From assembly GCA_964016885.1 (NCBI GenBank), contig OZ024740.1, positions 201,376,001 to 201,440,000 on the forward strand: a stretch of 64,000 nucleotides of DNA, read 5' to 3'. The translations under genes and the position numbers were made by a program. Below the pieces are notes generated by a model. That model ran no database searches. It had not been told where the DNA came from and saw only the letters and a program-made list of their open reading frames with translations. The DNA is from Eledone cirrhosa (taxonomy: Eukaryota). Of the stretch, positions 2,982 to 62,056 are shown piece after piece; the stretch's first letter is position 1; every line of letters begins with the position of its first letter.

Positions 2982-3046
<65 letters not shown>

Positions 3047-3339: not shown

Positions 3340-3692
3340 TTTTTTTCCTAGGTAAAGGTTGTCTGTCGGACAGGTGCGAAACGCGTCCTCCGCTGTTTGT
3401 TGTTTTGAATATCTGAGGTATTCGGCAGAGCGCGCATGCGCGTGAAATGGGGTCGGTCGGGCAGAGGTCAGCGGCCGAATGAGGGAGTGGGTGGCGCTAG
3501 CTGTCAGTCCATTCTCTGCCTGTTTTTTAAATGTTACTGTGTGTGTGCGTGTGTTGTTGTCTCGCTTGAGTGTGTGTGTGTGTGCGTGTGTAGTTGCCTT
3601 GTTCCTCTGTATTGGCAGTGTAGTATGTTCGTATGGTGGAATGCTACTGTGTGTGTGTGCGTGTGTTGTGTGTTGCTACATCGTTTGTTAAC

Positions 3693-4151
3693 TTAAACCA
3701 GCCATCTCATTTCGCTTCTCTCTAATCGGTTGTTTATTTGCGGTTGCAGGCGTTTGATAAAAAGTGCTTCCTTGATACGTAACGTGCCGACGTTTCTTTC
3801 AGTCGCTAGAATTGTGACAATGGGCCTTCCGTCTTTGTTTCCGCATTTGTCTATGTGTTTCCGGAAAGACGAGGCCCTGGTTTTAGTGTGTTCCTTGATC
3901 CGGATGTGCAAAGGTCGGATTGTGCTACCTATGTAGTATTGGTTGCACCTGTAACATTCTATCTTATACACGACGTATGTGCGTAGGCAACAGTTCGCAT
4001 GGCGTATCGGGCAGTCTCTGAGGGAGCATGCGTCAGTAGATTTCCCGGGTTTCTTGGAGAGGCATCTTCGCAGGGAGGGGCCCGAGTGGGCCAGGTGGAT
4101 GTCGAGGCCCTCCCTCCGTATAGCCTTGCGGATAGCGTTGGTGGTATTCTC
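3693..4151 (-). CDS. PLE1 GIY-YIG endonuclease domain (intact only in the inverted arm)
   Basis: CSLRDCPI..CC linker, VVYKIECYRCNQYYIGSTIRPLHIRIKEH, LRIKEALFIKRLQPQINNR. Confidence 0.93.
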   Translation of the reverse strand, partial: ENTTNAIRKAIRREGLDIHLAHSGPSLRRCLSKKPGKSTDACSLRDCPIRHANCCLRTYVVYKIECYRCNQYYIGSTIRPLHIRIKEHTKTRASSFRKHIDKCGNKDGRPIVTILATERNVGTLRIKEALFIKRLQPQINNRLERSEMRWLV

Positions 4152-4153
4152 CT

Positions 4154-6470
4154 CAAACTTCAATACTCTCTTATCCTTACACCTGAGCCAGGAATTGTTT
4201 GCATCCGTAAGGGAACTGTTTAGACTGTCGGAGAAATGGGCCAACGCTGGCTGTCAAATTATTTTCCTGAAACGCTGCCTAAAAAACGATGTCATCCCCA
4301 ACACCATCAGGAACATCCGCTTACCAGTAAGCCTACGTACACCAGCTTTCCAAAACACCACTAACCGCATACATCACACGTGTATTAAACAGATCCTGAG
4401 ACATCTCAACCGCCAATTACACGTCCATAAGCGGACACTCTCAGAGCGGACACATCGACTGCCAATAGCACCCGGGGACTTGCTCCTGAAAATCACTAAA
4501 GCAATGGACCAGTGCTACCACTCCAGAGTCCAATACCAGAAAAAACGGCTCAAGCGAAAATATGAGTGGATCTCGTCGAAACGCCACAACAGGAACATCG
4601 ACACTAACGAACAGACGGACCAGAACCACGTGGGAAACAACAACTTAACAACCGCCACCGCCGCATCCACCATCACCGAGCCATACCTCAACGATGCGAC
4701 GCACCTGGTCACCGACCTACCCGGCACTCTCACGAGCGACGAGCTGAAACTCCTACACCTCGGACCCAAGTTCATCATCTCACAAGGTCTCGACGACAGA
4801 CTCAAACTCAACATCGAGGCCAACTTTTGTCGAGCCGCTTACCAACTTAAATGGGTGACCGCCATCAACAGCGCCACAGAAAATAACAGCGCCCACGCAA
4901 CCCACCCCAAGTTACCCACTTACCACCCCGACAACCCACTCCACCCCCCACCCACCAACCACGAACTCGACACTAAACTCATCAGGCTAAAACATCTCGG
5001 ATATACTTCACAAACACACACGCACAACACATAACCTCACCAAATCTCAACTCACCATTCTCTCCAACCTAAAATCGAAGAACCTCATCTATCTCCCCTC
5101 CGACAAGGGAAAAGAATTCTGCGTCATCAGCAGAGAGGCCTACAACACCCTGGCCCTCCAACACCTTGACGATGACAACCTCTACTCCAAGGTCACGGGA
5201 ATCACTCCCGCGCAGATAGAAGAGCACATCAACGCCGCCTGGACCAACATCTGCGACCGGCGGAAGCTCCCGAAGAAGCTGAGATACAACCTCCTCACGA
5301 GGAACAGCAGATTACCCGCCTTCTACCACCTCGTGAAAACACACAAACAGGGACCCGACCTGTAGATCAGGCCCATCGTATCGAGCGAGGAGGGACCACT
5401 CTACAAAATTTCATGGCTCCTAGCCAGAATACTCAAACCCATCTTAGACACCTTGCCGGGACACGTTAACAGCTCCGAGGAGGTGTTGAAGCGCCTGCAT
5501 CAAATGGATCCCGACACCAGAAGGAATAACAGATATGCCTTCAGCCTTGATGTAGTCGCTCTCTACACCTCGGTCCCGGCACTCCCGGCCGTCAATATAC
5601 TGATGGAACGCGTCCAATCCACCGACTTACACTGCTTCGGGCTCACCACCACTGACATCCACCAACTCCTATCCATCGTCGTCGACAACACCTACTTCAG
5701 ATTCCTTGACCAAACATACCAACAAACCTCGAGATTGCCTATGGGATCAAGCCTATCAGGTGTGCTAGCGATCTCTTACATGGACAACCTCGAACGCAAG
5801 ACACTCAACGCCTGCCACCCCAACGCCGTAGCCTTTTTCTTAAGGTACGTGGACGATATCCTCATCCTCACATCTTCCCAAGACACGGCGAACAGAATCT
5901 ATGAGACGTTCAACAACACGGACGAGAACATTGACTTCAGTGTTGAACACCCCAACGAAGACGGGTCACTTGCCCTCCTCGACTTCCGAATCAACATCAC
6001 GGAACAGGGAAGGATCCACTGCAACTTCTACCGAAAGGCAGCCTGCAGGGACCTGTTCGTTCACTACAAGTCCGCCCTCCCTAACAGTGCCAAAAGAGGA
6101 TACATCACGAACGAGATCGCGCGAATCAAAAACAGATGCAGCGATCCCGCGAGTGGTGTCACTCATACCAAGCGATTCCTCGAGGTGCTGGAGACGAACG
6201 GGTACCCTACCTCGATCACAGACAGAATAGGAGACACCAGACACAAGAGACAGAGAGGCACCCAAGGCAAGTGTTTCCTTAAAATTCCACATCTGGGCGA
6301 GAATACCACCAACGCTATCCGCAAGGCTATACGGAGGGAGGGCCTCGACATCCACCTGGCCCACTCGGGCCCCTCCCTGCGAAGATGCCTCTCCAAGAAA
6401 CCCGGGAAATCTACTGACGCATGCTCCCTCAGAGACTGCCCGATACGCCATGCGAACTGTTGCCTACGCA
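4154..6470 (+). pseudogene. PLE1 reverse transcriptase ORF (frameshift near 5000-5030, TAG at 5363-5365, EN deleted)
   Basis: Motifs FLKRCLKNDVIP, LGPKF, PSDKG, FYHLVKTHK, IRPIVS, SLDVVALYTSVP, LPMGSSLS, RYVDD, LLDF, FYRK, NGYP; ORFs 3979-5034 and 5453-6598 joined by a readable frame from about 5030. Confidence 0.93.
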
Positions 6471-6795
6471 CACACACACACACAGTAGCATTCCACCATA
6501 CGAACATACTACACTGCCAATACAGAGGAACAAGGCAACTACACACGCACACACACACTCAAGCGAGACAACAACACACGCACACACACACACAGTAACA
6601 TTTAAAAAACAGGCAGAGAATGGACTGACAGCTAACGCCACCCCACTCCCTCATTCGGCCACTGACCTCTGCCCGACCGACCCCATTTCACGCGCACGCG
6701 CGCTCTGCCGAATACCTCAGATATTCAAAACAACAAACAGCGGAGGACGCGTTTCGCACCTGTCCGACAGACAACCTTTACCCCGGAAAAAAAAA

Positions 6796-6830
6796 CCCAG
6801 TTGATGGATGTGAATCCGAAATATATAGGG
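6796..6830 (+). ncRNA. Degenerate minimal HHR in PLE1 pLTR
   Basis: CC-CAGTTGA-T-GGAT-GTGA-ATCC-GAAA-TATA-TA-GGG; core CAGTTGA instead of CTGANGA. Confidence 0.55.
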
Positions 6831-7041
6831 ACTATTAAATCTCTCCCAAGGTAACTCTCTCTTGTGTTGTTATTTTTATTTTATCCTTTATACTCTTCCC
6901 TTCTTTCTTCTACACATTTACACATCTTTACACACCACGCATCTCAACGTACACCCACTTACATCTCTCTCTCCACCACCGGATCTTGTTACCCGGAGAT
7001 TTACCCATTTGCATTGTCGAGGCTTCCAAACGACTTAAAGA

Positions 7042-7085
<44 letters not shown>

Positions 7086-7162
7086 TTATACCACTCTCAT
7101 TTCTCATCTCATGCCCTCTTTCTTCCTTTCCATCTCGCTCTCCGTTCAAAATGTTGTTATAT

Positions 7163-7267
7163 CTGATGAACTGACTGGTTATAACAAAGTATTGGTGATC
7201 GATTGACGCAAAAACAGACGGGTAGCGATCTCTAGACCTACCAGTTCAGAGAAACAATTGTCAGCAA
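7163..7267 (+). ncRNA. HHR with long stem II; 5' strand of stem I lost at a junction
   Basis: CTGATGA-A-CTGA-CTGGT...ACCAG-T-TCAG-A-GAAACAATTGTC; palindromic stem III ACAATTGT. Confidence 0.75.
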
Positions 7268-7485: not shown

Positions 7486-10470
7486 CATTTAAATAAATCT
7501 AAGGTAAAAGACGAATTGTCAACAATATCTTTTGCAATTGCATTCTTTTTTCTATGTCCATACCTGCATTGTTTTGGCTTTATTATACATATTCAAACGT
7601 TTATACCTCATTACACAATGCTTCAAGTGAACTATAACCTCCTCCATATATATATATATATAAGAATTTCTATACACAAATATATTTATATCAGATTCGA
7701 AGCACTTGACAGATTTTCTGGAGTATAATATCAATGATATTAATAAATGGAAACTATATTTATGAAACCATATTTCAAGGGTACCAAAACTTTGCTTATA
7801 AATAGCTCGTTTAATGTTGAGCACTTTAAACTATAACAGATTGCAAGGAATTAATAATGGAATTTTTTAAGATGTACCCTTACCTAAAAATAAGGAATAC
7901 GTAAAACAACTTATAGAAAAATCCGATTCCTTCATAAGGAGACTTAGATGGCGCGCTTTACATTTTGATAAGAAATCGGAAAAGGAAATATATAAATCCA
8001 AGTATAATTTTGCTCTTATTTTCAAATCAAAGAAAAACCCACCTTCCAACAAACTACTAGCCGAATTTGAAAATGAAATAATCTCCATCATACAGAGCGT
8101 TATATTTAAAAGGAACCAATTTATTGGCCTGGAGTACCTCAAAGACCTCAAAAACAAAATAGACAATCTGAAAAAAACAAAGAAAATCCTTGTAAAATCG
8201 GACAAAACCAATAATGTATATGGTATTGAAAAAGATGCGTATAATAACCTAATACTGAAGGAACTTAGGAAAAACTATAAAAAAACATCAAATGAAGATA
8301 TTTCAAACCTAAATAACGAAGCCTCGGAAATTATTTATAAATTAGGCATTCAAAATAAGACAGAACCCTTTATACCTAGAAAACCGAGGGACCACAAAAG
8401 AAATTTTGAAGTTGATCTACCAGTCAGACTCATCGCACCATCTAAATCTGACCTAGGCATAATTAGCAAACATATACTAGATAGGATTATACCAGTGCTT
8501 AAGCAAAAATCACACCTATCGAACGGTACAAATGAAGTAATAGATTGGTTTGCAGACATTGAATTAAAACATAAGAAAAAATGTATTCAAATGGATATTT
8601 CAAATTACTACTCCTCTATTACCCCTAGATTACTTAATAAAGCATTTATTTACGCTTCTAAATATACAAACCTATCCAGTGAAGAAATGAATGGCATTCT
8701 AACCACACGTAAAACCCTAATAGAATTTAATAACCATCTCTGGACAAGGGCTGATAGACAAAACAATTTCGATATCACTATGGGATCATCTGAGTTAGCT
8801 CATGTAACAGACCTCGTTGGATTATTCATTATTAATGTACTACATAGGAAAATGTTAGAGATGACCGGAGGTTTATATCGCGACGATATGTTACTTTTAA
8901 TCGAAAACCATAGCAATAGCGAACTTAATAGGAAAAAGAAATCCATCATAGAGTTTTTCAACAACTACAACCTTAAATTAGAAATAGAGAATAATAATAA
9001 AATTGTTAACTTCTTAGACGTAACTTTAAACCTTAGCTCATTATCCTTTCCATAAAATTAAGGAAAACCTAAATTATATAAGCTTCAACTCTAACCATCC
9101 TAGAAATATAAAAAATACTATAGTCAATAGTGTCCAGCAACGAATCTCACGCATCTCAGCTAATAAAAATATTTTTGATAAGGCGGAATATTATAATGAA
9201 GCTTTACATAGAGCCGGATACTTGAATAAAATTAAATACTTAGATAACAATAACGTGCAAAATCATCCTAAAATTCACTATAATAATAAACAATTCAACT
9301 TAAATAGTAAATCAAACAAAAAAACTAGAACTAGAAATATTATTTGGTACTCTCCCCCATTCTCATTAGGGGTTAAAACACCTGTAGCAAAACTATTTTT
9401 CAAAGCACTGGATAAGTGTTTTCCCAAAGCCCACAGATACCATTCTATTTTTAACAGACACTATTAAACTATCCTACTCTACTACTATGAACATAGCGCA
9501 AAATATAAATAGAATTAATAATAGAAACTTAAATTTAAATCCAAACCAAACAAACCAAGATAACAATAATAATATTTCTAATAACAATATTCATACTAAT
9601 AATAATAGTACCGTTCCTAGTAACAATAACTCTCTAAAATGTAATTGTAGAATTGAATCAAACTGTCCTTTATAGAACAATTGCCTGGATAAAAACTTAA
9701 TATACAAATGCACAGTAAAAACTAGAGACAAAATATTTAACTATATAGGAGCCACTTCTACAAAATTCAAAGAACGCTGGTATAATCTCAGACATACATT
9801 TAATAGATCCGATAAAAAATCTTCCACATCACTTTCACATATAATTGGGTATTTAAAGGACAATAATATTGACTATTCAATCTCTTGAAATATGGCTCTT
9901 TCAAGAATTTGTAATTTGTGTATCTTGGAAATTTTTTATATACTTAACTGCCAAAGTTCTATAAATCTAAAAAATGAGATATTCAGTTCTATTCATACAT
10001 ATATCGACGTAGATAGTATCTAAATACATATATAATTGAAATTCTCATCCTTGAAAACATGTAATATAAAATACCTTATAATCTTACACTACATACATTC
10101 CGCATTTTCTAAGTAAATTCTAAATATACGACAAATCTAACGTTAATAGTTTAGCAACTAATATTGGAGTTATCTTTTCCTTTATAATGAAGCAAACATT
10201 GACATCCTTCGTAACAATAATATATATACTAAATTCTATGTAATTTCGTTAACTTAATAATTTTCTCTAAATATTTTCAATCTTTGATGAAACTATTTGA
10301 ATGTATAAAATGTTTTCCTCTATACTAAAATGTTGAACTACGTCTCTTTCATAACTATATATTTAAAATGTAAACTCAACATCCTTCGTAATATATATTG
10401 AAAATGTAAACAAATTAATATGTGCGTTATATATCTATTAAAAATAACAGATATATAATCATTAATAATA

Positions 10471-11453: not shown

Positions 11454-11534
11454 ACACAACAGTTAGTTCACCATACCGAGAACATTTGTTTCACCTTATG
11501 CAGATCTTCAGCTCGGATATGTATATATACCAGG

Positions 11535-21487: not shown

Positions 21488-21991
21488 TTTTAATATAGAT
21501 GAGATTCTACAGCACTAGAACTGTTTCATTCTTTAGAAATCATCAGGAATCTGGCTTTCCAAAAATAAATGTTGTGGTATTTATATATTTTCAGGTGGTA
21601 GGAGAGGGTGGGGAGTGGGATGGGTAGAGGTCATTGGTTGAAAGAAAGGGGAATTCATTAAAAGCTAAATCTTTAAGGCTGTAATTTATATTTAGAGTGA
21701 CAAAGGCAGAAAGAATTCTATAAACAAGTTCAGAATGGGGTGCCACTCCTTATTTTTAAGTTTCTCTCAGTCTAACAATGCCTATATTTCAGGTGTCTAT
21801 AAGATCGTTGGGGGTCGGTCATGGTTGATGGATTTAAAGAAAAGGGAAATTCTTTAAAAGCTAATTCTTTAAAGTTCTACTTTAAGTGACAAAGGTCTAG
21901 ATAATTCTATAGACCAGTTCAAAATATTGGGTGCCTATCATATCATTATCTTCAAATTTCTCTTAAGCAATATTCCAGGTGTCGACAGACA

Positions 21992-25876: not shown

Positions 25877-25926
<50 letters not shown>

Positions 25927-25929
25927 TAC

Positions 25930-26420
<491 letters not shown>

Positions 26421-28982: not shown

Positions 28983-29041
<59 letters not shown>

Positions 29042-29380
29042 CAGAAAACATTTGTATTTTCTACGCCATCTTTATTTAGTCTGTTTATATATTTATTTAT
29101 TTGTTTATTTTATTTTGTCTTCTTTGCGCATGCGTTTGCGTGTGTGAATAGTGTTTTGTTTGATGTGTGTTCGTGATTGGGTGACTGTGTATTGGTTAAT
29201 GTATTCTATCTTTACTAGTGTGTGTTTATATGTGTTTGTTGTTATTGTGATTGTGTATGTATTTATTTATTTATTTATCTATTTATTTATTTATTTATAC
29301 TTCTCTTAGGTCAGTGTTGTTTGTTTGGGTGTTGTTGTTATTCCATTCATTCTTTCTGTTTAGCCTTGGCCTTCTAAGTT

Positions 29381-29970
29381 CTATTTCACTGGCCTCTCTG
29401 ATGGGTCATTTCTATGTTTAGATATTATTCTAATTTCTATGTTGTCTATGTTACCGTCGTGTTGTTGTCTGGCATGTTCGTATAGTACTGAACCGTTTTT
29501 TCGTCCTTTTAGTTCCCCCCAGTGTTGGTCTATCCTTTCACCTATGCTACGAGCTGTCTCGCCTATGTATGTTGTTGTCATGTTTCTGCAAGTACCCTCT
29601 GTACATCTTATGCTATAGACTACGTTTCTAGTTTTACAGTTTATCCGGGGGTTTACCTTACATATGATACATTTCCTATTAGTACAGTGGGTTTTCTTAA
29701 AAGGGTAGGTTTTGCTGATCAGGGATTTTATGGTCGTTCCTGGCTTTTCTACCACCTCAATCTTTAAGTGGGTCTTTCTCAGGGCCTTTCTACACTGGTT
29801 AGCTAATTTCCCTCCAGGGGTAGCGTCCACAAACATGACACTCTGGTATCTCTGGTTGTCGTACCATGAGGTGGCTTTCCCTATCTTATGTCTAGCCCTA
29901 TCTAAGCTATTCCATGATTTGCTCCTGTATAATGAGCAAATTTCTCTCATGTCCAGTTCTATGAGAGTCT
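29381..29970 (-). pseudogene. PLE3 linker + GIY-YIG endonuclease fragment
   Basis: MFVDATPGG, CTNRKCIICK, CKTRNVVYSIRC, YIGETARSIGERIDQH; frameshifted near the end. Confidence 0.88.
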
Positions 29971-30145
29971 TATACTTCTCCAATAAGCAGTCACCCAATC
30001 ACGAACAGACATCAAACAAAACACTATTCACACACGCAAACGCATGCGCAAAGAAGACAAGATAAAATAAACAAATAAATAAATATATAAACAGACTAAA
30101 TAAAGATGGCGTAGAAAATACAATGCAACGGGAGGAAACAATAGC

Positions 30146-30188
30146 ACCACTGACGATGTTGCAGATGTGCAACGAAAGAACTTTGATA
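30146..30188 (+). ncRNA. HHR in PLE3 pLTR
   Basis: CTGACGA-T-GTTGCA-GATG-TGCAAC-GAAAG-AA-CTT; stem I weak. Confidence 0.7.
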
Positions 30189-30392
30189 AACTATATATAC
30201 GTGTTTGTGTCTATATTGTATCTGTATTATTTTTGACCGTTGGTCAGTCAATGGCAACATTGAGGACCGAATAAATTAGATTACCGATATAAAAGACACA
30301 GAAGCGAAAAGCGAAAACCAACCAAACAGTGGGTGTGTTCTGTTATTAATTCTGGCAATATTACACAAATATGACCCTCCCCAAGTATAACA

Positions 30393-30498
<106 letters not shown>

Positions 30499-30736
30499 GT
30501 GTGTATATATGTATATAAATATATATATATATATAATATTAATGATACTATTTATGGTTATGTATATTTTAAACTTTTTATAGTTATGTATATTTTAAAC
30601 ACTAAACAGTGAAGGTCAGTAATTTATTACTACCTTATTACCAGTAAGATAAATAGCTCAATGTAATAACAACAGTTGTTCTACAGAGCAGTTATATAGA
30701 ATTCAGAAGTATCAAAGCTATGTTCAAAGCATTTAT

Positions 30737-30785
30737 TCACTTACAATTGTTTCATCCAAACCTAGGCTTGGTGTCTTCGGAGCAT
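30737..30785 (-). ncRNA. HHR, CCGAAGA core variant
   Basis: Mirror of 31877-31925. Confidence 0.75.
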
Positions 30786-31876
30786 TTTTCAATGTTTGCA
30801 CATATAATTGACCTCCTTTCCAACGCAAGAGACATACAGATACATATATATATATTGATGTACAGTGGAGTGACATATATTATACTATACTATCTTTGTA
30901 CAGCAATTCAAATTCAAAATCAAAATCAAAATCAAAATTAAAATACATTCGGCATATAACACAGATAATGTAAGAGGATAGTTTGATAGTCAGATCTAGT
31001 AGGTAGTGTATGCGTTAGTTACACATGGAGCATGCAAGTGTGTCTCATTTATATACGATTATTGTGTGGCAAGGTGTTACATGTAATGCAAGCACTTTAA
31101 GCGGGTAAGCAAGAGTATTATGGTGGTTGTAGTGGTAGGGTATTTTTTGTATAGATCATAAAAGTATGTGTGCAGAGAAAGAAAAAGACGAAGAAAAAGA
31201 AAAAGAAAGTTATAGTTTTCGTATCCACCACCATTTTCACATTCAGGAAAAGGAAGACAGTTTTTACATCCATCACATAAGTTACGATGATTCCGTATTG
31301 AATGTTTGATGCATTAAATTATTGTAGCGTATTGAGGCTCAGTGTTATTTAATCCATATTTATAGAATAGGTTCTTTCTGCTGCGAGAATTTACATGTGA
31401 TGGATGTAAAAACTATGTCTTCCTTTTCCAGAATGTGAAAATGGTGGTGGATACGAAAACTATAACTTTCTTTTTCTCCTCTTTTTCTTTTTCTGCACAC
31501 ATACTTTTATGATCTATACAAAAGATACCCTACCACTACAACCACCATAATACTCTTGCTTACCCGCTTAAAGTGCTTGCATTACATGTAACACCTTGCC
31601 ACACAATAATCGTATATAAATGAGACACACTTGCATGCTCCATGTGTAACTAACGCATACACTACATACTAGATCTGACTATCAAACTATCCTCTTGCAT
31701 TATCTGTGTTATCTGCCGAATGTATTTTAATTTTGATTTTGATTTTGATTTTGAATTGCTGTACAAAGATAGTATAGTATAATATATGTCACTCCACTGT
31801 ACATCAATATATATATATGTATCTGTATGTCTCTTGCGTTGGAAAGGAGGTCGATTATATGTACAAACATTGAAAA

Positions 31877-31925
31877 ATGCTCCGAAGACACCAAGCCTAG
31901 GTTTGGATGAAACAATTGTAAGTGA
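31877..31925 (+). ncRNA. HHR, CCGAAGA core variant
   Basis: TGCT-CCGAAGA-CA-CCAAGCC-TA-GGTTTGG-AT-GAAACAATTGTA-AGTG. Confidence 0.75.
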
Positions 31926-31973
31926 ATAAATGCTTTTAACATAGCTTTGATTCTTGTGAATTCTATATATATA

Positions 31974-33038
31974 CCAGATAGAAAAATGCGTACAGCAAAA
32001 AAAAGTAATATTGTTGGAATATAAACCTTTAAAAATACAGGACAAGAAACTAAAATAAAACTTTAAAAGAATAGGACAATAAACTAAGATAACACTTTAA
32101 AAGAATAGGACAAGAAACTAAGATAAAACTTTAAAGAATTGGACAAGAAATAAAAAAGTTTACAATAATATTAGTGGCAAATTTTTATTGGTAAAAAATC
32201 GAGTTCCACATTCATAGGCTCTGGGTTCCACATTCAGAGGTCGTCGTCAGACCGGGGGGATCATTTGATCCTGGTTTGAACACCAATTGGGCCATAACCA
32301 TACCCCTATTTCATCATAATGTGAATGGACCCATGGGCCCATAAGCACAGATCTTGAGCAGCAGCGGACGGTCTTGTCGTCCCGCTCATCCTTGATCTTG
32401 ACCAACCCGTCCATCTTCTCCTTGCATCTTGTCCTTGAGTTCAAGTCCGGCAGTCCAGATGAATGCGTGCCACAGCTTTCTGGTACAGGAAGGGGGAGCA
32501 GGAGGACTGGAGGGATGACGGGACAGAGGGAGGGAGGACCGGTGGTTGAGGGAGGTGCCGTAGTCGGTGGTCAGAGTCGACATCTTGTCCCGGTCGTCTT
32601 CTCCATCTTCGTCTGGTGTTGCGGGACCAGAAGTGCATTCTTGGAGGAGACCTGCAGCTGCATCGGCCAATTCTTCTTGCAATGGTCATTCTGACGGAGC
32701 AGAACTGCTCAGCCAACCAACCCCAACCAGAACCAACCGCTCAGGGGCAACGCACAATGAGAGCATGACAATTATTATGCACTAATCAAGAAGATACTGG
32801 GGCATAGCACAGGAAACGAATAAAAAAATTTTGCCACTAATATTATTGTAAATTTTTTTATTTCTTGTCCAATTCTTTAAAGTTTTATCTTAGTTTCTTG
32901 TCCTATTCTTTTAAAGTTTTATCTTAGTTTATTGTCCTATTCTTTTTAAGTTTTATTTTAGTTTCTTGTCCTGTATTTTTAAAGGTTTATATTCCAACAA
33001 TATTACTTTTTTTTGCTGTACGCATTTTTCTATCTGGT
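31974..33038. repeat. Inverted repeat, about 210-bp arms with internal 33-bp subrepeats, around a GC-rich core
   Basis: 31974-32185 inverted to 32826-33038; subrepeat AGGACAAGAAACTAAGATAAAACTTTAAAAGAAT. Confidence 0.9.
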
Positions 33039-33851
33039 CTACTATTTTTTAAGGCAATGCAAGCAACAACTATCTAATAATTAAATGATCATAGTGAATT
33101 ATTGACAAGTGATTGACATTTTAAAGTTCTTTTGAGTATAATTGCAATCTAGTTGAGGCAACTGGCTTAATGACAAAGCTAGTAAATCATGAATGCATTT
33201 GAGATGATTAGTGCATAATAGTGAATTGGTGAAACTTGTGCATTCCAATGGTGTTAGAACAATAGATGTAAGTTATATAGTAGTAATACTTTATCATTTT
33301 AACTTTTTAGAATGGGCAAAAACCCATGCAAAGAAATGACTTTGACTGCAGTGATTCTCTCCAATTTACTTACAAAGCAAAACGTGGTCAAATACCTTAT
33401 CATCTCTGATAAAATTCCCATTGAATCACTGAAAATCGGATGCATGGAATTCCTCATAAAATGCACCTATGAATCGGAAGCCATCACATATATCAATGGA
33501 TATAGGGAGTTGTTCACACTGGAAGACCATCACTTCATTTGTGACTTCATCAGTTATCTCCACGATTATCTCAGACACCCAATGCCATTGATGAGAGGTG
33601 ATCCAATGTGTTAGCATGTAACTAATCTTATAGAAGTTGTTATCGACCACCTGGCTTTTAGTGACATTTGACTGATTTGACTGATAATGATGTATTTTTA
33701 AAAAGTATGTATACATTCTTGTTACTATTTTAAGGCAATGCAAGCAACAACTATTTAATAAAATTTAAATTTAAAAATGACCATTGTGCATTACTAGTAT
33801 GATGACATTTTATTAAGTCACAAAATTAGTCAGTCAGCCATAGAACAAGGA

Positions 33852-34647
33852 TCAGGTGGCAAAAACATTGGCAAAAATTTGTGTCAATTTAAGATTTCCA
33901 ACATTGTTCAAATGAATCATATCTGGTTTGAAGTCAGATTTGTCAAATTTTGACCAATTTTCAATGTTGTGAAGATTGGGCAAGTTCAATTTTTGAAACA
34001 TTTCTTTCATGCAGTAATTAAACTTTTTCAAACGAGAATTTCTCTTGCCCAAGTCATTTTTATTTTCAATTACACTTTGTGGACGTGGAATGACACCACT
34101 GTAGAAAATGGGTGTACAGTGGTGCTTTTCCGCTATTTTCTGTAGCCTTGCAAAGAGACTCTTCCCCTGTTTTTCCGGTTTTGTGCCTCGAATGGGCACT
34201 TTGTCCTTAATTTACAAATAAATGATTAATAAAAAATACTTGGGCAAAAATTATTGTATTACTTTGCACAGCTTTGTAGTGCCAACGGTGCGACGAGGAT
34301 TCAGATCATTAGAGCCGACATGAACCACCAATACTTTCACAAAAGGACAACAGATAACAATGTTGGCGATTAACATTACCTGGCCCTGACGGGCCCCAGG
34401 TATACAAAATATCTAAGTATTTTTGTTGGTATGATAAGTAAATACATTTGAATTAATATTTTTATACCTTCTGGTCATTCGATTTCGCCACATTTCTAAT
34501 TATGGATTTGTAAAAACTGGCATGAATGTGAATTTGATCAGTCCAATTGCCCGATTTTAGTGAAAAGTTTTGATTCGAAATGGAAATACTCCATTTCCGT
34601 GCCATGGAAAAAATGAATAAGCCGATCAAAAAGTCGCGAAACATCAT
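33852..34647 (-). CDS. Spliced SGNH/GDSL hydrolase-like gene (exons 34647-34468, 34412-34263, 34205-33852; about 227 aa)
   Basis: GT-AG introns 34413-34467 and 34206-34262 splice in frame; blocks S-IIRNV, IPGA, VHVGSND, SGVIPR, DMIHLN..G; start codon uncertain. Confidence 0.8.
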
Positions 34648-35219
34648 TTTTAATTAAGCGAAATTAGTGGATGCAAATCTCAGAAAATATTGTACACTAT
34701 TCGCACCTATCGCACTATTCGCACCTATCGGTACAAAAATATAGCGCACTATTCGCACCTATCGGTACAAAAAATCGCACGACTGTTAATAATACTAGAA
34801 GTGCAAACTATCTGTTGAATACCTGGTATATGAAGAGCAACCGATACGATCGGTCGGCGATCGGTCTTGAAGAAGAATGAAGAATGAAGTGAAATTTTGG
34901 TCTGGTTGTTGTCATCGGTGTTTCGCAGAGATGCCGGCACGAACAAAGGTGTCAGTGACACAAAGTTGTCCGCTTGAACAAAGGTGTCGGTCCGACAAAG
35001 GTGTCAGTCAGACAGACAGTCAGACAGTGTCACAGTCGGTGCGACAAAGCGATCGATGCGATTAAAAAAAATTTAACTCACATGTTTACCTATATTTTCG
35101 CAAACTATTGATAGATTGGTACAAAAAATAGCTTTGATAATAAACATAAATTTTTAACGAAGTATTTAAAAAGCATTTTAGCAGTGAAAGGTGAAGTAAT
35201 GTTTCACACTGACGCAAGT

Positions 35220-35343
35220 AGGGCCGTTCAGAAATGACGTAGTCAATTAGGAGGAGGGGATTCGGCGATTTGACTACATTTGACTAACGTAATCACAATC
35301 ACAAGAGTTCCACCGAAAAAAATTCGTCATTTCTGGATTACCT
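35220..35343. mobile_element. Small MITE-like element
   Basis: Imperfect TIR AGGGCCGTTCAGAAATGACG / CGTCATTTCTGGATTACCT. Confidence 0.5.
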
Positions 35344-35693
35344 CCCCTAGCGTCACGCTTACTACTCACTCACTTGAACACAAGATTTATCAGCAAACTT
35401 TGATTATAAACTTTTTCCCGCTGGACCAAATTTCTAGATTTTTAAGCCAAAAGATGCGTAATGATCTACTGTTCATGCTCATATAAGTTTTATCTCAGTT
35501 AAATAAAGTAGAGCCGCGCTGTACTGTCGTAAACAGACGATTGCCAACGAAAACACGACCACAACAATATTACTAAACGGAGTGGCCGTACTCGAAAACG
35601 AGTTGGCAGCCACCATATGTATATATATATGTGTGTGTATATATATATATACATGTGTATGTATGTGTATATGTTTATGTATATATATGTATG

Positions 35694-35792
<99 letters not shown>

Positions 35793-36739
35793 GTATATGT
35801 ATGTATATATATATGTAGCATGTATATATATATATGTATTAATAAAAACTTTAACCTTAGTATTACCATGGACAAAAACACCAAAAACGTCAACTTCCTA
35901 GACGCCACACTCTACCTAGACTCAATGATATATGCACCTTTCCACAAACCTAATGAAAAACTCATCTACGTAGATACCAAGTCTAACCACCCTAAATCTA
36001 TATTGAACTCTATCTCTAAGGGAGTATCTAATAGAATCTCTAATCTATCCTATGACATAAACACATTTAACAATAACTCGCAATATTATAATCAGGCATT
36101 AGCTAGATCAGGCCATAATACAGGGATAGAGTTCCTACCTACAAAAACACATAGCTACAACATCATTTCACACAACATGTCCATGGGAAAATTTAACAAT
36201 AGGAATAGCAACCGCACACACACTAATAGGGATTATAATAACAAAAGTAACCCGCACCACAGAAATGACCATAGGAACATTAAAGGAAACAAATCACCAG
36301 ACATAAAAAACAGAAATAGAAGAAGAAATAATACATTTTTCAACCCTCCTTTCAATTTAAACGTCTCTACCAACCTTCCTAGGGCTTTCTTCTCACTACT
36401 AGATAAACACTTCCCATCCGGCCACAGGTACCACGGCCTTTTAAACAAAAACACTATTAAGATCTTATACTCTACTACGCCTAACTTAGCATACCACATA
36501 GCAAAATTAATTCTTACTTCCAACAAACTATATCACAACGGTCGATAAACCTTCAAAATAACATTCATAATAACAGTCAAAGTAGCATTATAACAAATAA
36601 CCGTAATATCAATGGAAATAATAGTAATAGCACTAGTGTAAACATTAACGCTGCGTACCACAACCCACATAACCATAACCCTATAGCTAACATCCAAACT
36701 TCTACGCAGCGTAGTAACCGGCAGACTAGCACCCAGAGT

Positions 36740-37171
36740 AATTGTAACTGTAGATCAAGTAGAACCTGCCCTTTGGATAAAAAATGCTTAACCAAGGATA
36801 TCATATACTCATGTACAGTCACAACTAACAACTCTTCTGAAACCTATATAGGCTCCACTTCTAACTGCTTCAAAACTAGATACAATTCGCACCTCCACTC
36901 TTTCAAAAAACACAGTCTAGCCAACTCCACTTCACTATCTAGCTACATACACTATCTAAAAACTAAAAATAAAATATATACACTTAAATGGGAAGTGGTA
37001 GGTAGTGCAACATCGTACAAACCACCTAATAAATTTTGTAACCTCTGTCTACTAGAGACCCATACTATCATCTTCTCTAAACATAATCTTCTTAATAAAA
37101 AATCAGAAGTGTTCGCAACTTGCCAACACCGCTTCCGACACTCGTTCCAAAACTTTAAACCCTATATATAA
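36740..37171 (+). CDS. PLE4 GIY-YIG endonuclease domain
   Basis: ORF 36773-37171 with IIY...YIG..R...H and C-terminal CNLC..E. Confidence 0.88.
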   Translation, partial: NCNCRSSRTCPLDKKCLTKDIIYSCTVTTNNSSETYIGSTSNCFKTRYNSHLHSFKKHSLANSTSLSSYIHYLKTKNKIYTLKWEVVGSATSYKPPNKFCNLCLLETHTIIFSKHNLLNKKSEVFATCQHRFRHSFQNFKPYI

Positions 37172-39091
37172 TAATGTCAGACTGGAACCGGCACCACCCC
37201 TAGCAATTAACATCAGTGGCTCACCTTACACCTCACATCCACACCCAATTCTATACTCTAAAGATAATACTGACAGCATTTTAGTACCACCTACCCTGGG
37301 AATACCCCCTTGTACCTCTAATTCTGATATCTCGACCGTGGACTACTTATTCTGCATTGCACAAATATATGATTAGTATAAACTGGGGACACGGTACTGG
37401 TTGCGATAACATAGTCCTGTGCATGGATTCCCACCAAGAGATAGATTGATGATTAGATAGATAATCGTATTGCTATGTGAATATATACTGTAAACGATCA
37501 GTTCAATGAATTATGCACAGGAGATGCATGAGTTAGGAGCCTCTGTGTTGCCTGGTGACCTGACCGGCACCTTTCGACAAGAGAACCGGCCACCGGAACA
37601 CCCTGGTGAACTTACCGGGGATGCAGTCATACTACGACCGGAATCTCCCCGGGAGTCATGTATGATAATAAGACCATTACTGAGAGTGAGATCCATGTAG
37701 TTAATCATGTAGTCTGACTCTTCTTATGGATTGGCCGGGTGTGGCACCCCATGTTGGATTGTAGTCGTCATGATACGAACTCCTTTAGTACTTGTTACTG
37801 GACTCCACTCTAGCTTGTGGATGGGATACCTGATCTATATGGGGGATGTGGGTTTATGTATTGCTTGGTGGCCAGACGGGTGCCCTGGTATGAGAGATTT
37901 AATCTCCAGATTGTAATCATCTTGATGTGAACTCCTTTAGTACCTATTAATAGACTCCACTCTGGCTTGTAGATGTGATACTTAATTGATTTATATATGA
38001 GACGGGGGTTGTCTATTGCATGATGACCAGACTAGTGCCTTTATATGAGAAATTGGATCTCCGGACCATACCGAAGATTTACCGGAGATTCAGACATGCA
38101 TTGACCCGGAGCCTACCGGGTGGCATATATAATAGTGGGACCATACCAGGTCCTACTGTTATATTACATTTGCATGGAACAGTGACTTGTGAGGCTGACT
38201 CCTCTTATAGAATGTTCAGATATGACACCCCTTAATAGATGGTAGTCATCCTAATATATACACCCTTGTACTTCTTAATGGACAACTCTCTAACCTATAA
38301 ATGGGTAGCATACTCTAGAAATTAGTTATAACTTCATATGATAGGCACGTATTTGAATCACCATTAATGTAGTTTAGGATAGTAATTTAACTAAGATAAC
38401 TAGCTAGTTACCTCCCCTTACGCATTAATTCCCCTTAGCCATTCAGACACTTCCGGAATCTGGACAGCATGATCTATTAATTAAGAACCGACTGGATACG
38501 GTTTATAGCTTGATTATATGCTGAACCATCGCGAATTACACGATAGACACGTGTTCTCCATATATATTGCGTCTCTTGGATTATGTGAGTGGTGGTGTGA
38601 GCGAAGACAGTGGTACGGCTTTGCCTACGATACAATAAGGTTTATAGTATGTTGAAAGTTTTTGATATTCTGGTGTTTCCCTGCATCCGAGACTGTATAT
38701 CATACAGATGTATGAGAATATATGACTTAATAATTCAACCCACATAATAAAATCGATTGCCTGCTTCAACTGCCTGACCCTGCAAATATCATTCTGACGC
38801 ACTCTAATCTTGTATAAATAAGACACGCGTGCATGCTACACGTGAGATTGTTTCATACACTGACTACTCTAAGCTTTCCTCTTGCTTTATCTTCATAGAC
38901 TGCCAACGCTTCATGTTTATCTTTATTTTCATTCTTGTTTTTATTTTATTTTTATCCTGTAACCATTATATGTAAATTGCCATGCTATATCATTTGATGA
39001 ATGTCACCTCACTGTTGATCAATATGCGCATATGTTTTATATGTCTCTTGGGTTGAAAAGGAGGTCAAGTATGTTATAGATCAGTAAATAG

Positions 39092-39140
39092 TTGCTCCGA
39101 AGAATCCAAACCTCGGTTTGGAGGAAACAATTGTAAGCAA
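39092..39140 (+). ncRNA. HHR, CCGAAGA core variant, in PLE4 pLTR
   Basis: TTGCT-CCGAAGA-A-TCCAAACC-TC-GGTTTGGA-G-GAAACAATTGTA-AGCAA. Confidence 0.82.
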
Positions 39141-39210
39141 TTAAATGACTTAAACTGAACTTTGATTATTGTAATCTCTATATATATATGTATATGTATG
39201 TATATATATA

Positions 39211-39817
39211 TGTCAGGTCATCACTTGGTGCTGCTGGTAACATGTATTCCAGTACAACCTGTCCCATGGTCGGGTCGTTGGCGACTAAACTGGCAACCCC
39301 ACCAAGGTTTCTTGGTGAGGAGGGTGACTTTGGACATCCTGCAGGACTAAAAACAAAACCTGTCAAAGGGCAAAGGATCTCTTAAGAGTCAATGGCCATC
39401 CAAAATCACCGGGAGAGATGACCCCTTAGCCTTTGTCAAGGCAGAATTCTAGGAGAAGGAAAACTCTGATATAACACCTGCAACCCTGATGGTATCCAAT
39501 GATGTTGACTTGTTCTTCTTTTTGGTAAATATCATCTTGGTTAAGAGAGTGGGACTGGCTTTGTGCAGTGCCTTTGCTCACTATAAAAGCTTCACGGCAC
39601 AGGCATTGCTTTATATCTGGAGATCTCTTTGCACTTGTCGTCACATGGTACCATGGGCCCAGCACTGTGTCAATAATTGTCACAAGTGTAGTGTTTGTAC
39701 CAGAGTTTTCAAGTCGCTGGCTGGACTAAAAAGTCACACTCGTCAGCGCATCGGTAGGCGTTCCCCTACATGGATATAAAGTAGTGGCCGTACTCGAAAA
39801 CGAGTTGGCAGCCACCA
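39211..39817 (+). mobile_element. Non-autonomous RTE-like element B' (LINE 5' part joined to 3' zinc finger and tail)
   Basis: GGAGAAGGAAAACTCTGA 5'-UTR-like motif; [18 protein letters not shown]2H2-like end; 3' hairpin ACTCG-AAAA-CGAGT then (TA)n. Confidence 0.65.
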
Positions 39818-39819
39818 TA

Positions 39820-40555
<736 letters not shown>

Positions 40556-40621
40556 TATATATATGTGTGTGTGTATGTATGTATGTATGTATGTATGTAT
40601 GTATGTATGTATGTATGTACG

Positions 40622-40658
<37 letters not shown>

Positions 40659-40766
40659 TTAAAAACATTGACCACTCCCGTGACGGAAAATAAATTCAAC
40701 AATTTTTAGAATTGTTTGATATGTGACTACTGCTATGTTTTGATCCCATGCCCATATATGGACTGT

Positions 40767-40862
40767 ACCCCTTGATAAGTTCAGCTAGATTACTACCGTC
40801 CTAACACTACTGGGTTAGTTCAGATCTAGCAGTCGAAACGGCCAGTGCTCAGCCGTCGGGGT
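40767..40862 (+). ncRNA. Degenerate HHR with long stem II
   Basis: ACCCC-TTGATAA-..GCTAGAT...ATCTAGC..-GAAACGGC-CAGTGCTCA-GCCGTC-GGGGT; helices intact, core mutated. Confidence 0.7.
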
Positions 40863-41279
40863 CCTGACTCTTTTCCTATATATATATATGTGTGGGGGGG
40901 GGGGGGGGTCTGACTGTCTTTGAACCAGCAGCAGTGAAGCCATGTTAAAGTTACACAAATAACGCACCAAACACAAAAAAAGCTTTGGCTGCTAAGAAAC
41001 ATTTCTCAAAATAGAAGAAATCAACACAATAGACGAGATGCACTAATATTTTTACTGTGTAAACATCCATTTTCGATACAATGAAAATGTTTCATTTCCG
41101 CAAGTAGCTATGAGATTTCTTTCTATGTTATCTGTACTGTTTCTTAACAAGAGATAACAAGGTTTATTCTACAACACTCCAAGTGAGGTTCTATTGCACA
41201 AAGAGGTTGTATTGAACGTCACAACCCCATACTTATAGTTACCTATAACTCTAACGTGAATGAGCATGGCTTTCTGATT

Positions 41280-41510: not shown

Positions 41511-41774
41511 TTTCTAAAACTGTTAACACAATAAATGTAATCTGAGTTTTTCGAATATTAATAGTAATACTCGATTCGTTTGTAATTATGCAAACAGCCT
41601 CTTTAAAGCCATGTCAGTAGAATTACAACGTCGTTCTTGCTCTTGTGTTGACATGTAAACAGAACTGCAGACACTAACGTTTCTGTGCGATTACCCTTCA
41701 TCAGTACAGTATACTGCTTACCTGCCAACTGTCAGAGCTAGTGAAAATATAAGATATTTTCTAAAATATAGTGA

Positions 41775-42100
41775 CTGATCGGCCTGATTTGCATATTAGC
41801 AAACTCACTGATCAGCCAGATTTACATATTAGCAGACTCACTGATCAGCCAGATTTACATATTAGCAGACACACTGATCAGCCAGATTTATATATTAGCA
41901 GACACTCTGATCAGCCAGATTTACATATTAGCAGACACTCTGATCAGCCAGATTTACATATTAGCAGACACTCTGATCAGGCAGATTTACATATTAGCAG
42001 ACACTCTGATCAGCCAGATTTACATATTAGCAGACACACTGGTCAGCCAGATTTACATATTAGCAGACACACTGATCAGCCAGATTTGCATATCAGCAGA
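41775..42100. repeat. 33-bp minisatellite, about 10 copies
   Basis: Unit CTGATCAGCCAGATTTACATATTAGCAGACACT. Confidence 0.95.
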
Positions 42101-48951: not shown

Positions 48952-49617
48952 CAGCCCACACTGTAAAGTGGTCGTGATGGTGACACGACAAAAAATGGCC
49001 AGCCCACACTATAAAGTGGTCGTGATAGTGACACGGCAAAAAATGGCCAGCCCACACTGTAAAGTGATCGTGATGGTGACACGACAAAAAATGGCCAGCC
49101 CACACTATAAAGTGGTCGTGATAGTGACACGGCAAAAAATGGCCAGCCCACACTATAAAGTGGTCGTGATAGTGACACGACAAAAAATGGCCAGCCCACA
49201 CTATAAAGTGGTCGTGATAGTGACACGACAAAAAATGGCCAGCCCACACTATAAAGTGGTCGTGATAGTGACACGGCAAAAAATGGCCAGCCCACACTAT
49301 AAAGTGGTCGTGATAGTGACACGACAAAAAATGGCCAGCCCACACTATAAAGTGGTCGTGATAGTGACACGACAAAAAATGGCCAGCCCACACTATAAAG
49401 TGGTCGTGATAGTGACACGACAAAAAATGGCCAGCCCACACTGTAAAGTGATCGTGATGGTGACACGACAAAAAATGGCCAGCCCACACTGTAAAGTGGT
49501 CGTGATGGTGACACGACAAAAAATGGCCAGCCCACACTCTAAAGTCGTCGTGATGGTGACACGGCATAAATGGCCAGCCCACACTGTAAAGTCGTCGTGA
49601 TGGTGACACGGCAAAAA
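48952..49617 (+). repeat. 48-bp minisatellite, about 14 copies
   Basis: Unit CAGCCCACACTATAAAGTGGTCGTGATAGTGACACGACAAAAAATGGC. Confidence 0.95.
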
Positions 49618-50975: not shown

Positions 50976-51959
50976 ACTACAGAACAGGAAGATGGTCATG
51001 TCGTCTGGCCTTTTGCTGTCTCCTCAGTCTAGCCCTGCTGGTTTGAGCTGGGAGAGCAAGCCTGCAGCATCTATAGATTGTGTTAGGTATTATCCATATA
51101 GATTTTATTTTGGCATTATCAGTATTAATACTCATCATTTGTGAGATGAATTTAAATATTTTTATTTTCAGTTTTAATAGTCTGAGTTCATTTGTAAAGA
51201 TCTTTCACACACGAAAAGAAAAACTATTAATTCTGTTGCACACTCGCATTAGGTCATTCCACCTGCCAAATTCACTCATAAAGCATTGGTCAGTCTGCAG
51301 CTATAGTAGAAGACACTAATCCAAGGCGTCTTTAGTGGGATCAATCACAGAACCACGTATTTGTGAAGCAGGCTTCTTAATCACACAGCTATACCTTTCC
51401 CTATCAAATGGCTATATTCTCTGTCAAACCATTTCTTTATATCTTAATCTTTCTTCTGTAGACCTTTAGCCAATAGAAATTTCCTTTGGGCATTTTGTTC
51501 TCAACTCATCTTTGATTGTCTCAACAACTTTGTTTCATGCTTCAGCAACTCTGAGCTTGAAAAAAATGTTTACTTTTGGAAACATTTGTTCAAACTATCT
51601 GCATCAGTTGTTAACTGTCGGGACACTGCTTTCTTCAAAACTTTCAGAGTTCCTCAAATTCGCCAACGCTACACCTGATATTCCCCTTCCATACATACAT
51701 ACACACGTACGTACGTACGTACGTGTGTGGTGTGTGGTGTGTGGTGTGTGTGTGTGTGTGTGTGTGTCACCAACCGCTTTACAACGTATATTAGATATAT
51801 TTCCTCATACCTCCAGCATTAAAGACGTATTTCAGGACTACAGTGTCCCCTTCTACGCTGTATCAGTTTTTATTTAAAGTTACTGTTCTCCTTAGTTAGG
51901 CTGCCTTCACTACAATTTCGTATCTTCTGTGCAGTTTTTATATGGAATGACTGCTCTCC

Positions 51960-53225
51960 TTGACAGGCTGGTCTTCCTGCAAATATTTTTGGGAGTTAGG
52001 CCTTAAAATTAACCTGGCTAAGACTAAAGTTCTAGTTTGTAGGAAAGAAAATAAGGCGGCGGTCCCTTCCGGGAAATGGCCATGCTCAGTGTGTAGGAAA
52101 GGCGTAGGTAGAAACTCCATTTTATGTCCCAAATGCAAAGTATGGGTGCATAAAAGATGTAGTGGGATCACAGGTAAGCTAACTAAGAACATAGATTTTA
52201 CATGTGGCCGGTGCTCTGGTGCAATAAGTAACAGCAAGTGCCCACAAAATACTAGCTCTTTCAATTGCGCAGAGGGTTCTATAGAAATAGTGGACAGCTT
52301 CCGTTACCTGGGTGACAAAATCAGCAGTGGGGGAGGGTGCTCTGAAAGTACAGTAGCTAGAGTCAGAACTGGTTGGAAAAAGTTCAGAGAGCTTATACCA
52401 CTATTAGCTGCTAAAGGGTTCTCCCTAAAAATGAAAGGCAGGTTGTACGATGCCTGCATACGAACAGCAATGTTGCATGGCAGTGAGACCTGGGCATTGT
52501 GTGCAGAGGATATACGCAGACTAGAGAGGAACGAAGCTTGCATGCTCCGCTGGATGTGTAATAGTAATATATGTGAACGGCTAAGCATAAACGAACTAAG
52601 GAAAAAATTAAAAATAAGAGGGATCAGATGTTGTTTACTCGAGAGAAGGCTATGTTGGTATGGTCACGTGATGCACATGAAAGACGACAGCTGTATAACA
52701 AAGTGCAGGGCAATAAAGATAGACAGTAGCCACGGAGTAGGCAGACCCAGAAAAACCTGGGACGACATGATAAATTCCGACCTCACACGCTTACACCTCT
52801 CCAAAACAATGTCACTGGACCGAGACCTTTGGCGGTCCTCAGTAATAGAGAAGACCCGCCTTACCTAAATACAAAGTAAAACCTACTACAGTCAGTAGGC
52901 ATCTCTAACAAAACACACCCCCACCCCATCCACACCGCCCCTTTCAATGTAAAGTTATGTTGGTGCCACAACATCCAGGCCGAAACAAATGAGATCGTGT
53001 AGGTGTCACGACAAAAAACACACAGTCCACGCTGTAATGTGGCCGTGTAGGCAACACGGTAAAAACCTCCCAGCCCCACACTGTAAATGTGGTTGGTATT
53101 AGGAAGGGCATCCAGCTGTAGAAAATCCGCCAGACAGTCCTATGCGAGCAAGATAATCACTCTTGCCTCAAGTGGGAAAACCCCCGTCCAAACCCATGCA
53201 AGCGTGGAACACGGACGTTAAACCT

Positions 53226-61452: not shown

Positions 61453-62056
61453 GTTGGTTGTCTATGTATACTGTTGGTTGTCTATGTATACTGTTGGTTG
61501 TCTATGTATACTGTTAGTTATCTATGTGTACTGTTGATTGTCTATGTGTACTGTTGGTTGTCTATGTATACTGTTAGTTGTCTATGTATACTGTTGGTTG
61601 TCTATGTATACTGTTAGTTATCTATGTATACTGTTGATTGTCTATGTATACTGTTAGTTATCTATGTATACTGTTAGTTATCTATGTATACTGTTGGTTG
61701 TCTATGTATACTGTTAGTTGTCTATGTATACTGTTGATTGTCTATGTATACTGTTGGTTGTCTATGTATACTGTTAGTTATCTATGTATACTGTTAGTTA
61801 TCTATGTATACTGTTAGTTGTCTATGTATACTGTTGGTTGTCTATGTATACTGTTGGTTGTCTATGTATACTGTTGGTTTTCTATGTATACTGTTGGTTG
61901 TCTATGTATACTGTTGGTTGTCTATGTATACTGTTGGTTGTCTATGTATACTGTTAGTTGTCTATATATACTGTTGGTTGTCTATGTATACTGTTAGTTG
62001 TCTATATATACTGTTGGTTGTCTATGTATACTGTTGGTTGTCTATGTATTCTGTTA
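61453..62056. repeat. 20-bp minisatellite, about 30 copies
   Basis: Unit TGTTGGTTGTCTATGTATAC. Confidence 0.97.

Follow-up and report, generated by a model that had tools for sequence, protein, structure and literature searches.

A three-exon gene predicted to encode an SGNH-type esterase lies on the minus strand of the window (the whole stretch of DNA analysed, 64,000 nucleotides), within a unit that recurs elsewhere in different surroundings. The gene is real and its mobile context is confirmed, and the element class is most likely Helitron-like. With a probability of roughly 0.55, we read the gene as the intron-bearing cargo of a young, non-autonomous, Helitron-like element of ~3.6 kb, which would run from 31974 to about 35598. 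Its insertion site is a (TA)n tract with Penelope remnants on either side. Feature coordinates are reported in Table 1.

Table 1. Features of the SGNH gene, the proposed element and its flanks (positions in the window).
Feature	Position	Strand	Remarks
SGNH gene, exon 1	34468-34647	-	180 nt, 60 codons; hydrophobic N-terminus; block I YKS; Ser48 codon 34506-34504
SGNH gene, predicted intron 1	34413-34467	-	55 nt, GT..AG, phase 0, GC 0.18
SGNH gene, exon 2	34263-34412	-	150 nt; block II PGA and block III HVGSND; aligns with PDB 4C1B
SGNH gene, predicted intron 2	34206-34262	-	57 nt, GT..AG, phase 0; two in-frame TAA
SGNH gene, exon 3	33852-34205	-	354 nt; FYSG motif, block V DMIH, stop
AATAAA polyadenylation-like signal	33809-33814	-	37 nt past SGNH gene stop
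Arm A, proposed 3' end	31974-32189	-	ends CTGG (31977-31974), then T(A)n; window copy alone
GC-rich insert between arms	32190-32821		GC 0.53, coding-like, several 80-120-aa frames
Arm B	32822-33041		220-bp inverted copy of arm A; 34-bp tandem repeats
34-bp direct repeat, copy 1	33047-33080	+	97% identity to copy 2
34-bp direct repeat, copy 2	33728-33761	+	pair brackets the plus-strand ORF
Candidate 43-nt 5'UTR intron	33268-33310	+	GTAAG..TTTTAG, directly before the ATG of the plus-strand ORF; from sequence
100-aa ORF, convergent to SGNH gene	33312-33614	+	BACK/BTB-like features
13-bp asymmetric inverted repeat	35562-35574	+	beside terminal hairpin; exact-copy search
Remaining half of terminal hairpin	35573-35581	+	other copies continue about 17 nt
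Tail of another repeat	35581-35618	+	38 nt, 100% identical to 39783-39820; replaces last ~17 nt of window copy
(TA)n microsatellite, right flank	35615-35839		repeat scan
Left flank, Penelope pLTR-like repeat	31786-31973	+	outside element; ends in (TA)5; 77% identical to 39001-39188
5'-truncated Penelope-like ORF remnant with GIY-YIG	35880-37171	+	separate from element; Pfam GIY-YIG E=0.00047; related to copy 9024-9990

As claimed in the preliminary description, removal of two GT-AG mini-introns leaves an open frame of 227 aa plus a stop on the minus strand (34647-33852). Both introns need to be removed, because retaining intron 1 would throw the reading off frame, and intron 2 contains in-frame stops. 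The introns have a GC content of 0.18, compared with 0.36-0.45 for the exons. When up to two GT-AG introns of 45-70 nt each were allowed, none of 200 dinucleotide shuffles of the 1.1-kb region reached 227 aa, the best giving 147 aa. Scored against a profile of the four relatives described below, with the window protein left out, the proposed splice model ranked first among 16 open two-intron models at 61.4 bits, by a small margin over a runner-up with an alternative intron 2 donor (59.9 bits). Both introns are retained, with no joint at either, in DNA-like contigs from four runs, and the 55- and 57-nt introns are predicted to be removed by splicing. Scans for open reading frames miss the gene because these introns break its frame.

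Upstream of the start codon lie short direct repeats (34684-34773 and 34943-35014), which are possibly promoter elements. A diverged relative at 34503-34613, with 17 differences and 3 gaps over 111 nt, was also present in two runs (X1 record 5 and X4 record 14). It has in common with the gene the beginning of exon 1 and, probably, the repeats upstream of it, departs over more than 250 nt on each side, and has loose contig ends at 34503 and 34784. Its depth in X4 is 61, against about 4 for the SGNH gene. The relative (34503-34784) may represent a subfamily of paralogous SGNH genes, or a promoter/leader module that the two have in common.

The SGNH blocks of the predicted protein fall where they were originally placed (YKS 46-48, PGA 65-67, HVGSND 91-96 and DMIH 205-208), and the assignment itself held under profile comparison. 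A family profile of three sequences, the window protein included, has PDB 4C1B as its best PDB sequence match (E=1.1e-11); single-sequence Pfam matches are weak (Lipase_GDSL_3 E=0.0026-0.0068, below the curated cut-off, with E=0.0026 for the exon 3 region). ESM Atlas family matches for exon 3 are all SGNH. Structure modelling of exons 2-3, with intron 2 translated as well, gave a pLDDT of 68 and a pTM of 0.68 (pLDDT 41 when folded from the single sequence), and the top 25 Foldseek ranks among the matches listed are SGNH-type esterases. The best of these are sialate esterases, PAF-AH and 4C1B, with just one at E<=0.001, and 4C1B gives the lowest rmsd among the folds listed (2.4 Å). As modelled, the protein fold is SGNH-type.

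Residues S48, G66, N95, D205 and H208 (blocks I, II, III and V) are all present. Ser48 occupies the column of the catalytic GDS serine in the relatives' profile, block I having been placed by profile alignment and lying outside the folded model. The block reads YKS and not GDS, as first noted, and X1 record 4 and X5 record 19 show 0 differences across it. Because these contigs, from organisms A and B, do not differ there, YKS is the family state and not the decay of a single copy. We expect ester hydrolysis to be weak or altered, or replaced by lipid binding alone, since the usual GD before the serine reads YK; the product would most likely be a weak or non-catalytic lipid-binding SGNH protein. 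In the family-profile alignment to 4C1B, H91 and S146 match H191 and S228, which were named transposon-specific residues in the ZfL2-1 ORF1p esterase (PMC3905857).

A HMMER search of 1.84 billion representatives returned two relatives, P0002 (28%, E=4.3e-7) and P0003 (33%, E=5.6e-4), to which a profile search added P0004 and P0005 (4 of 5996 candidates confirmed). All four are unnamed NCBI proteins in which an N-terminal NADAR part is fused to SGNH; P0005 is a fragment that matched mostly via the relatives' share of the profile. They have PGA, HxGxND and SGxxPR motifs in common with the window protein, but differ from it in retaining GDS and the NADAR part. We found no NADAR remnant in the window, and a decayed NADAR tail in exon 1 was considered and rejected; BLASTP gave no match between this exon and the NADAR part of the relatives. 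Protein searches seeded with words from exon 3 confirmed 0 of 74 and 0 of 1 candidates, and locus scans confirmed relatives in 0 of 4, 0 of 110 and 0 of 35 pattern matches in viral contigs and in 0 of 7 and 0 of 69 in metagenome contigs. No description of a NADAR-SGNH pairing was found in the literature searched, outside which lay most subscription papers. A retroelement origin of the NADAR-SGNH relatives is plausible by analogy, because brown-algal Gypsy elements, as well as ORF1 of Tx1 LINEs in the oyster, have been reported to carry NADAR (PMC12477816). The esterase probably descends from a retroelement-type NADAR-SGNH accessory protein that lost its NADAR part and gained or kept two mini-introns.

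Contigs from 4 of 13 listed runs (X1, X4, X5 and X7), belonging to three studies, aligned to 33042-35600. They define a repeated unit whose right end is fixed and whose flanks vary. The unit also occurs in three forms with internal deletions, and their joints (33181>35325 in X1 and X5, 33450>35327 in X4, and 34034>35324 in X1) retain both sides of the unit and drop the SGNH gene. Because these gene-less forms share the same ends, the gene is dispensable for movement in cis. The contigs are 98-100% identical to the window copy in runs labelled as three organisms. In X1 the SGNH gene has a depth of about 610, and a minor variant one of 14. Such depth does not give a copy number; it hints that gene-bearing copies number in the tens and are near-identical. 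The role of the SGNH protein would be that of either a young passenger or an accessory helper, and such near-identical copies give no power to test for selection between the two. The preliminary description had proposed an accessory gene of a large mobile element or an endogenous virus, not an ordinary host gene. The variable right flanks and the deletion joints bear out the mobile unit; the unit is not large, at ~3.6 kb, and the evidence set out below speaks against both a Penelope/Terminon and a viral source.

Copies that share the 34-bp repeat region (33047-33090 and 33684-33720) or the right end (from 35364) enter different interiors (X7, X5, X1 and X4), which suggests swapped cargo or subfamilies. 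One copy with a different interior may be the autonomous parent, and a larger autonomous parent of the ~3.6-kb unit is conceivable.

The right end is defined by other copies. All five listed right-end rows (X1, X4 and X5) leave the window copy at 35578 or 35581, and the other copies go on to complete a perfect stem of 10 bp, capped by a 4-nt loop; GA and then T follow. On the gene's strand, 5 of the 5 rows thus listed read A followed by TC at the hairpin end. X1 and X4 also contain a variant whose stem has a compensatory change of G-C to C-G, and in X4 another variant differs in the loop alone. Beyond the hairpin the flanks are TA repeats (X1 and X5) or unique DNA (X4), with no Penelope DNA. 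In the window copy the end has been overwritten, at a junction (35581) with microhomology of about 1 nt. The source repeat of the overwriting tail contains a zf-C2H2 finger, by which we take it to be an RTE-like LINE. A LINE-like 3' end with a C2H2 finger occurs in two copies in the window (39212-39815 on the plus strand and 25910-26420 on the minus strand), each ending at (TA)n.

Beside the hairpin lies a 13-mer whose exact copies in the window are at 32004-32016 (-), 32995-33007 (+) and 35562-35574 (+), and nowhere else; it stands in inverted orientation, about 24 nt from the right end and about 30 nt from the left. A match of at least 12 nt in common with the left-end window was seen in 0 of 5000 control windows, for a 13-mer picked after looking. 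The right-end motif had 0 matches in viral contigs. The preliminary description had looked to other copies for the element's ends and its associated enzyme. They supplied the fixed right end. No reverse transcriptase was found in the unit, and in 91 of the 126 filtered window ORFs, from which the filter had dropped AT-rich coding DNA such as exon 3, there was no Pfam match to Rep/helicase, transposase or viral genes.

We infer the left end from the window copy. Here arm A finishes in CTGG followed by T and abuts the (TA)5 tail of a Penelope-type repeat. The inverted 13-mer stops 30 nt before this end, and the hairpin is weak, with a 3-bp stem 9 nt before CTGG (z -0.8; 42 of 200 shuffles fold as well). 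Arm B is 97% complementary to arm A and reads CTGG (33034-33037) followed by T on the plus strand. It belongs to the element family, because X4 and X5 contigs run past 33042 into it and a loose end in X7 matches 33016-33045. It may be a second 3' end inserted the opposite way, as proposed for composite fungal Helitrons (PMC5148889), or a captured foldback element. The frames scanned in the GC-rich insert (32190-32821) have no Pfam or NCBIfam match. For the plus-strand ORF, ESM Atlas gave 0.92-0.94, with BACK/BTB families on 10-20% of cluster members, and no BTB/BACK match was found in Pfam, PDB or NCBIfam, leaving a BACK-like identity as a lead only. The window copy of this ORF stops earlier than the copies in three runs.

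The arms also count against a Helitron-like element, since 220-bp arms with tandem repeats resemble a separate foldback/TIR element. The gene could instead be cargo of a cut-and-paste transposon (Mutator/foldback or Tc1-like), or the structure could be composite, in which case 31970-33041 would be a long-TIR MITE of its own and the actual left end would lie somewhere else. A 16-bp motif of the arm tandem repeats recurs at 35485-35500, and internal-deletion forms are typical of DNA transposons. Yet only the inner arms are matching inverted repeats; at the outer termini, where hairpin-GA stands opposite CCAG, neither is an inverted copy of the other, the arms (31970-33041) are flanked by TA on the left and TC on the right and so have no target duplication, and the junction of arm B with 33042 is common to other copies. 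We therefore hold this alternative to be unlikely, though still of some weight. The idea that the right end and arm A form long degenerate TIRs was rejected: 2 of 1000 shuffles scored as high, but so did 70 of 682 real windows.

The Helitron-like assignment is argued from the termini. HLE1 elements are described by 5'-TC, 3'-CTRR and an A-T insertion context, and HLE2 elements by short asymmetric repeats and terminal hairpins with compensatory changes (PMC11417382, PMC3627910, PMC5148889 and PMC4067079). The hairpin end gives 5'-TC after A, and CTGG precedes T at 31974 and 33037, in the window copy alone, which could represent CTRR-3'. The 13-bp exact repeat falls among asymmetric terminal inverted repeats of 8-16 bp, having been chosen post hoc with a left end from the window copy, and beside it stands the terminal hairpin with its 10-bp stem and compensatory change. 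There is no TT insertion with T-runs at the borders, the right flanks being TA repeats or mixed DNA. Because the termini combine HLE1 with HLE2 marks, a rolling-circle reading is suggested; as judged from the sequence, the ends fit neither class cleanly, given the 3-bp 3' hairpin and the absent T-run target. Both element flanks are TA repeats, with the window right end overwritten, and a TA flank cannot show that a target duplication is absent.

Under the Helitron-like reading, the hairpin/TC end would be nicked by a Rep/helicase supplied in trans. Copying of one strand would then pass across both the SGNH gene and the small BACK-like gene and stop at the CTGG end. The strand would then be joined between A and T without target duplication, as we infer from the termini. 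The introns would be kept because the unit moves as DNA.

The window is animal DNA in which (TA)n, SINEs, LINEs and Penelope remnants abound. The gene had been described as lying inside a stack of Penelope-like elements, which is right by position; it is not Penelope cargo, as the unit's other copies are flanked by TA repeats or unique DNA. What we take to be hammerhead-like cores occur in Penelope-type repeats at 31882-31913, 30749-30780, 39097-39128, 40431-40454, 21523-21546, 41679-41704 and 11488-11511, the first of them in the pLTR-like repeat of the left flank (31786-31973). Three hammerhead-like cores have a CCGAAGA variant of the usual core. Rfam gave no hammerhead match over 29000-41000; its matches were microsatellite-driven miRNA/scaRNA alone (23 rows, below gathering score). 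Large foldback structures, with arms 94-99% complementary, surround Penelope-like or reverse transcriptase remnants at 30676-31986, 29052-30123 and 2188-7164. Foldbacks around Penelope remnants are typical of inverted pLTR arrangements. Elsewhere in the window, a 305-aa ORF (51951-52868, plus strand) contains a PHD finger (Pfam PHD E=7.7e-7) and is presumably the C-terminal part of a LINE ORF2. There are also young minisatellites at 48952-49617, 41774-42100 and 61453-62055, with units of 48, 33 and 20 bp and 93-95% matches.

Such a neighbourhood invites the reading that a retroelement, Penelope/Terminon-like or of another kind, is transcribed on the plus strand and carries the gene as an antisense accessory, whose introns were kept by lying on the opposite strand. 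The unit lies between Penelope remnants, (TA)n comes after its end as it does after the Penelope and LINE tails in the window, Terminons and Penelope-like elements are known to contain GDSL ORFs, and the nearest proteins are fusions with NADAR, which is reported in oyster Tx1 ORF1 (PMC12477816). The copies argue otherwise: they retain both ends and lose the middle, without 5' truncation, and their flanks are not Penelope DNA. Nor does the unit contain a reverse transcriptase (with or without GIY-YIG), a hammerhead-bearing pLTR at its 3' side or a hammerhead-like core at either end, and the Penelope parts lie outside it. We judge this origin improbable.

Very improbable, too, is a derivation from an endogenous DNA virus or a Polinton-like element, of which the unit would be a remnant piece with hairpin ends and compact genes containing introns. 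The convergent genes are compact and carry mini-introns, SGNH folds are present in BFVD, and BTB/BACK-like proteins occur in large DNA viruses. However, the best BFVD match has E=4.8e-3, with none at E<=0.001, and the matches are mostly phage proteins at about 10-20% identity; sequence scans of viral contigs confirmed no viral locus, the window ORFs scanned include no polymerase, capsid, ATPase or integrase, and the deletion series is MITE-like. An ordinary or decaying host gene with repeat ends adjacent by chance is the least credible source, for although the introns, the poly(A)-like signal and the near-identity across runs labelled as three organisms would suit it, the joints fuse both sides of the SGNH gene in several forms, and two relatives at 28-33% identity among 1.84 billion representatives are not the pattern of a conserved host gene.

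A repeated ~190-bp SINE in the window is, we assume, octopus-like. If it truly is, the Helitron-like element fits reports from octopuses, namely 8 Helitron families with recent activity and 178 insertions in Octopus vulgaris (PMC13282606) and, in supplement rows of HELIANO, abundant HLE1 in O. sinensis. The main text and supplement file of HELIANO do not mention GDSL, SGNH or NADAR. We found no description of the element in the literature searched, which did not extend to Repbase or to most subscription papers.

A compact, young, three-exon esterase on a DNA element with natural gene-less forms would make an easy test case for expression, selection and activity. In the literature, a role of esterases in mobile elements is put forward as hypothesis alone, namely membrane targeting or particle assembly. 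Going further, and with odds we regard as rather poor, the element could represent an undescribed small multi-gene rolling-circle group with mixed HLE1/HLE2 ends, which targets (TA)n, swaps cassettes at the 34-bp repeat, and keeps an intronised, retroelement-derived SGNH gene with a rebuilt block I together with a BACK-like gene, both under selection as an accessory kit for membrane/lipid handling and ubiquitin-ligase interference. If true, this would be, with the texim genes of fish, a second independent recruitment of a retrotransposon esterase by a rolling-circle DNA element, and would point to a membrane-linked step in Helitron spread.

Among known systems, the ZfL2-1 ORF1p esterase of a CR1/L2 LINE (4C1B, PMC3905857) shares with the window protein the histidine at N-4 and the serine of the SG motif. 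It has GDS and forms a domain within ORF1, which lacks introns and precedes a reverse transcriptase (of the APE-RT type in CR1/L2), whereas the window gene stands alone, has two predicted introns and has no linked reverse transcriptase. The GDSL ORFs of bdelloid Terminons and LTR elements resemble it as swappable accessory genes; those systems are retroelements with a reverse transcriptase and hammerhead-bearing 3' ends, neither of which was found in the window unit (PMC5408684, PMC6431247). Non-autonomous HLE2 (Helitron2/Helentron, HINE/DINE-1) and HLE1 elements resemble the window element in architecture, with internal tandem repeats, deletion derivatives, asymmetric repeats, a hairpin, 5'-TC, a candidate CTRR-3' and an A-T context (PMC3627910, PMC4067079, PMC5148889, PMC11417382). 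It differs from them in its mixed marks, the lack of a T-run target, the weak second hairpin and the 220-bp internal inverted duplication of one end.

SGNH cargo on Helitrons is a theme already known since 2014, from the texim genes, SGNH hydrolase genes tied to fish Helitrons (PMC4021074). The texim genes have up to 15 exons and adjoin the Helitron coding region, whereas the window gene has three exons, introns of 55 and 57 nt, YKS in block I and no Rep/helicase nearby. Both are intron-containing, multicopy SGNH genes with CR1-type esterase kin, tied to a rolling-circle element, a likely one in the case of the window gene, and without reverse transcriptase. By this likeness, which is one of description and not of a protein tree, the window gene would work much like the texim case.
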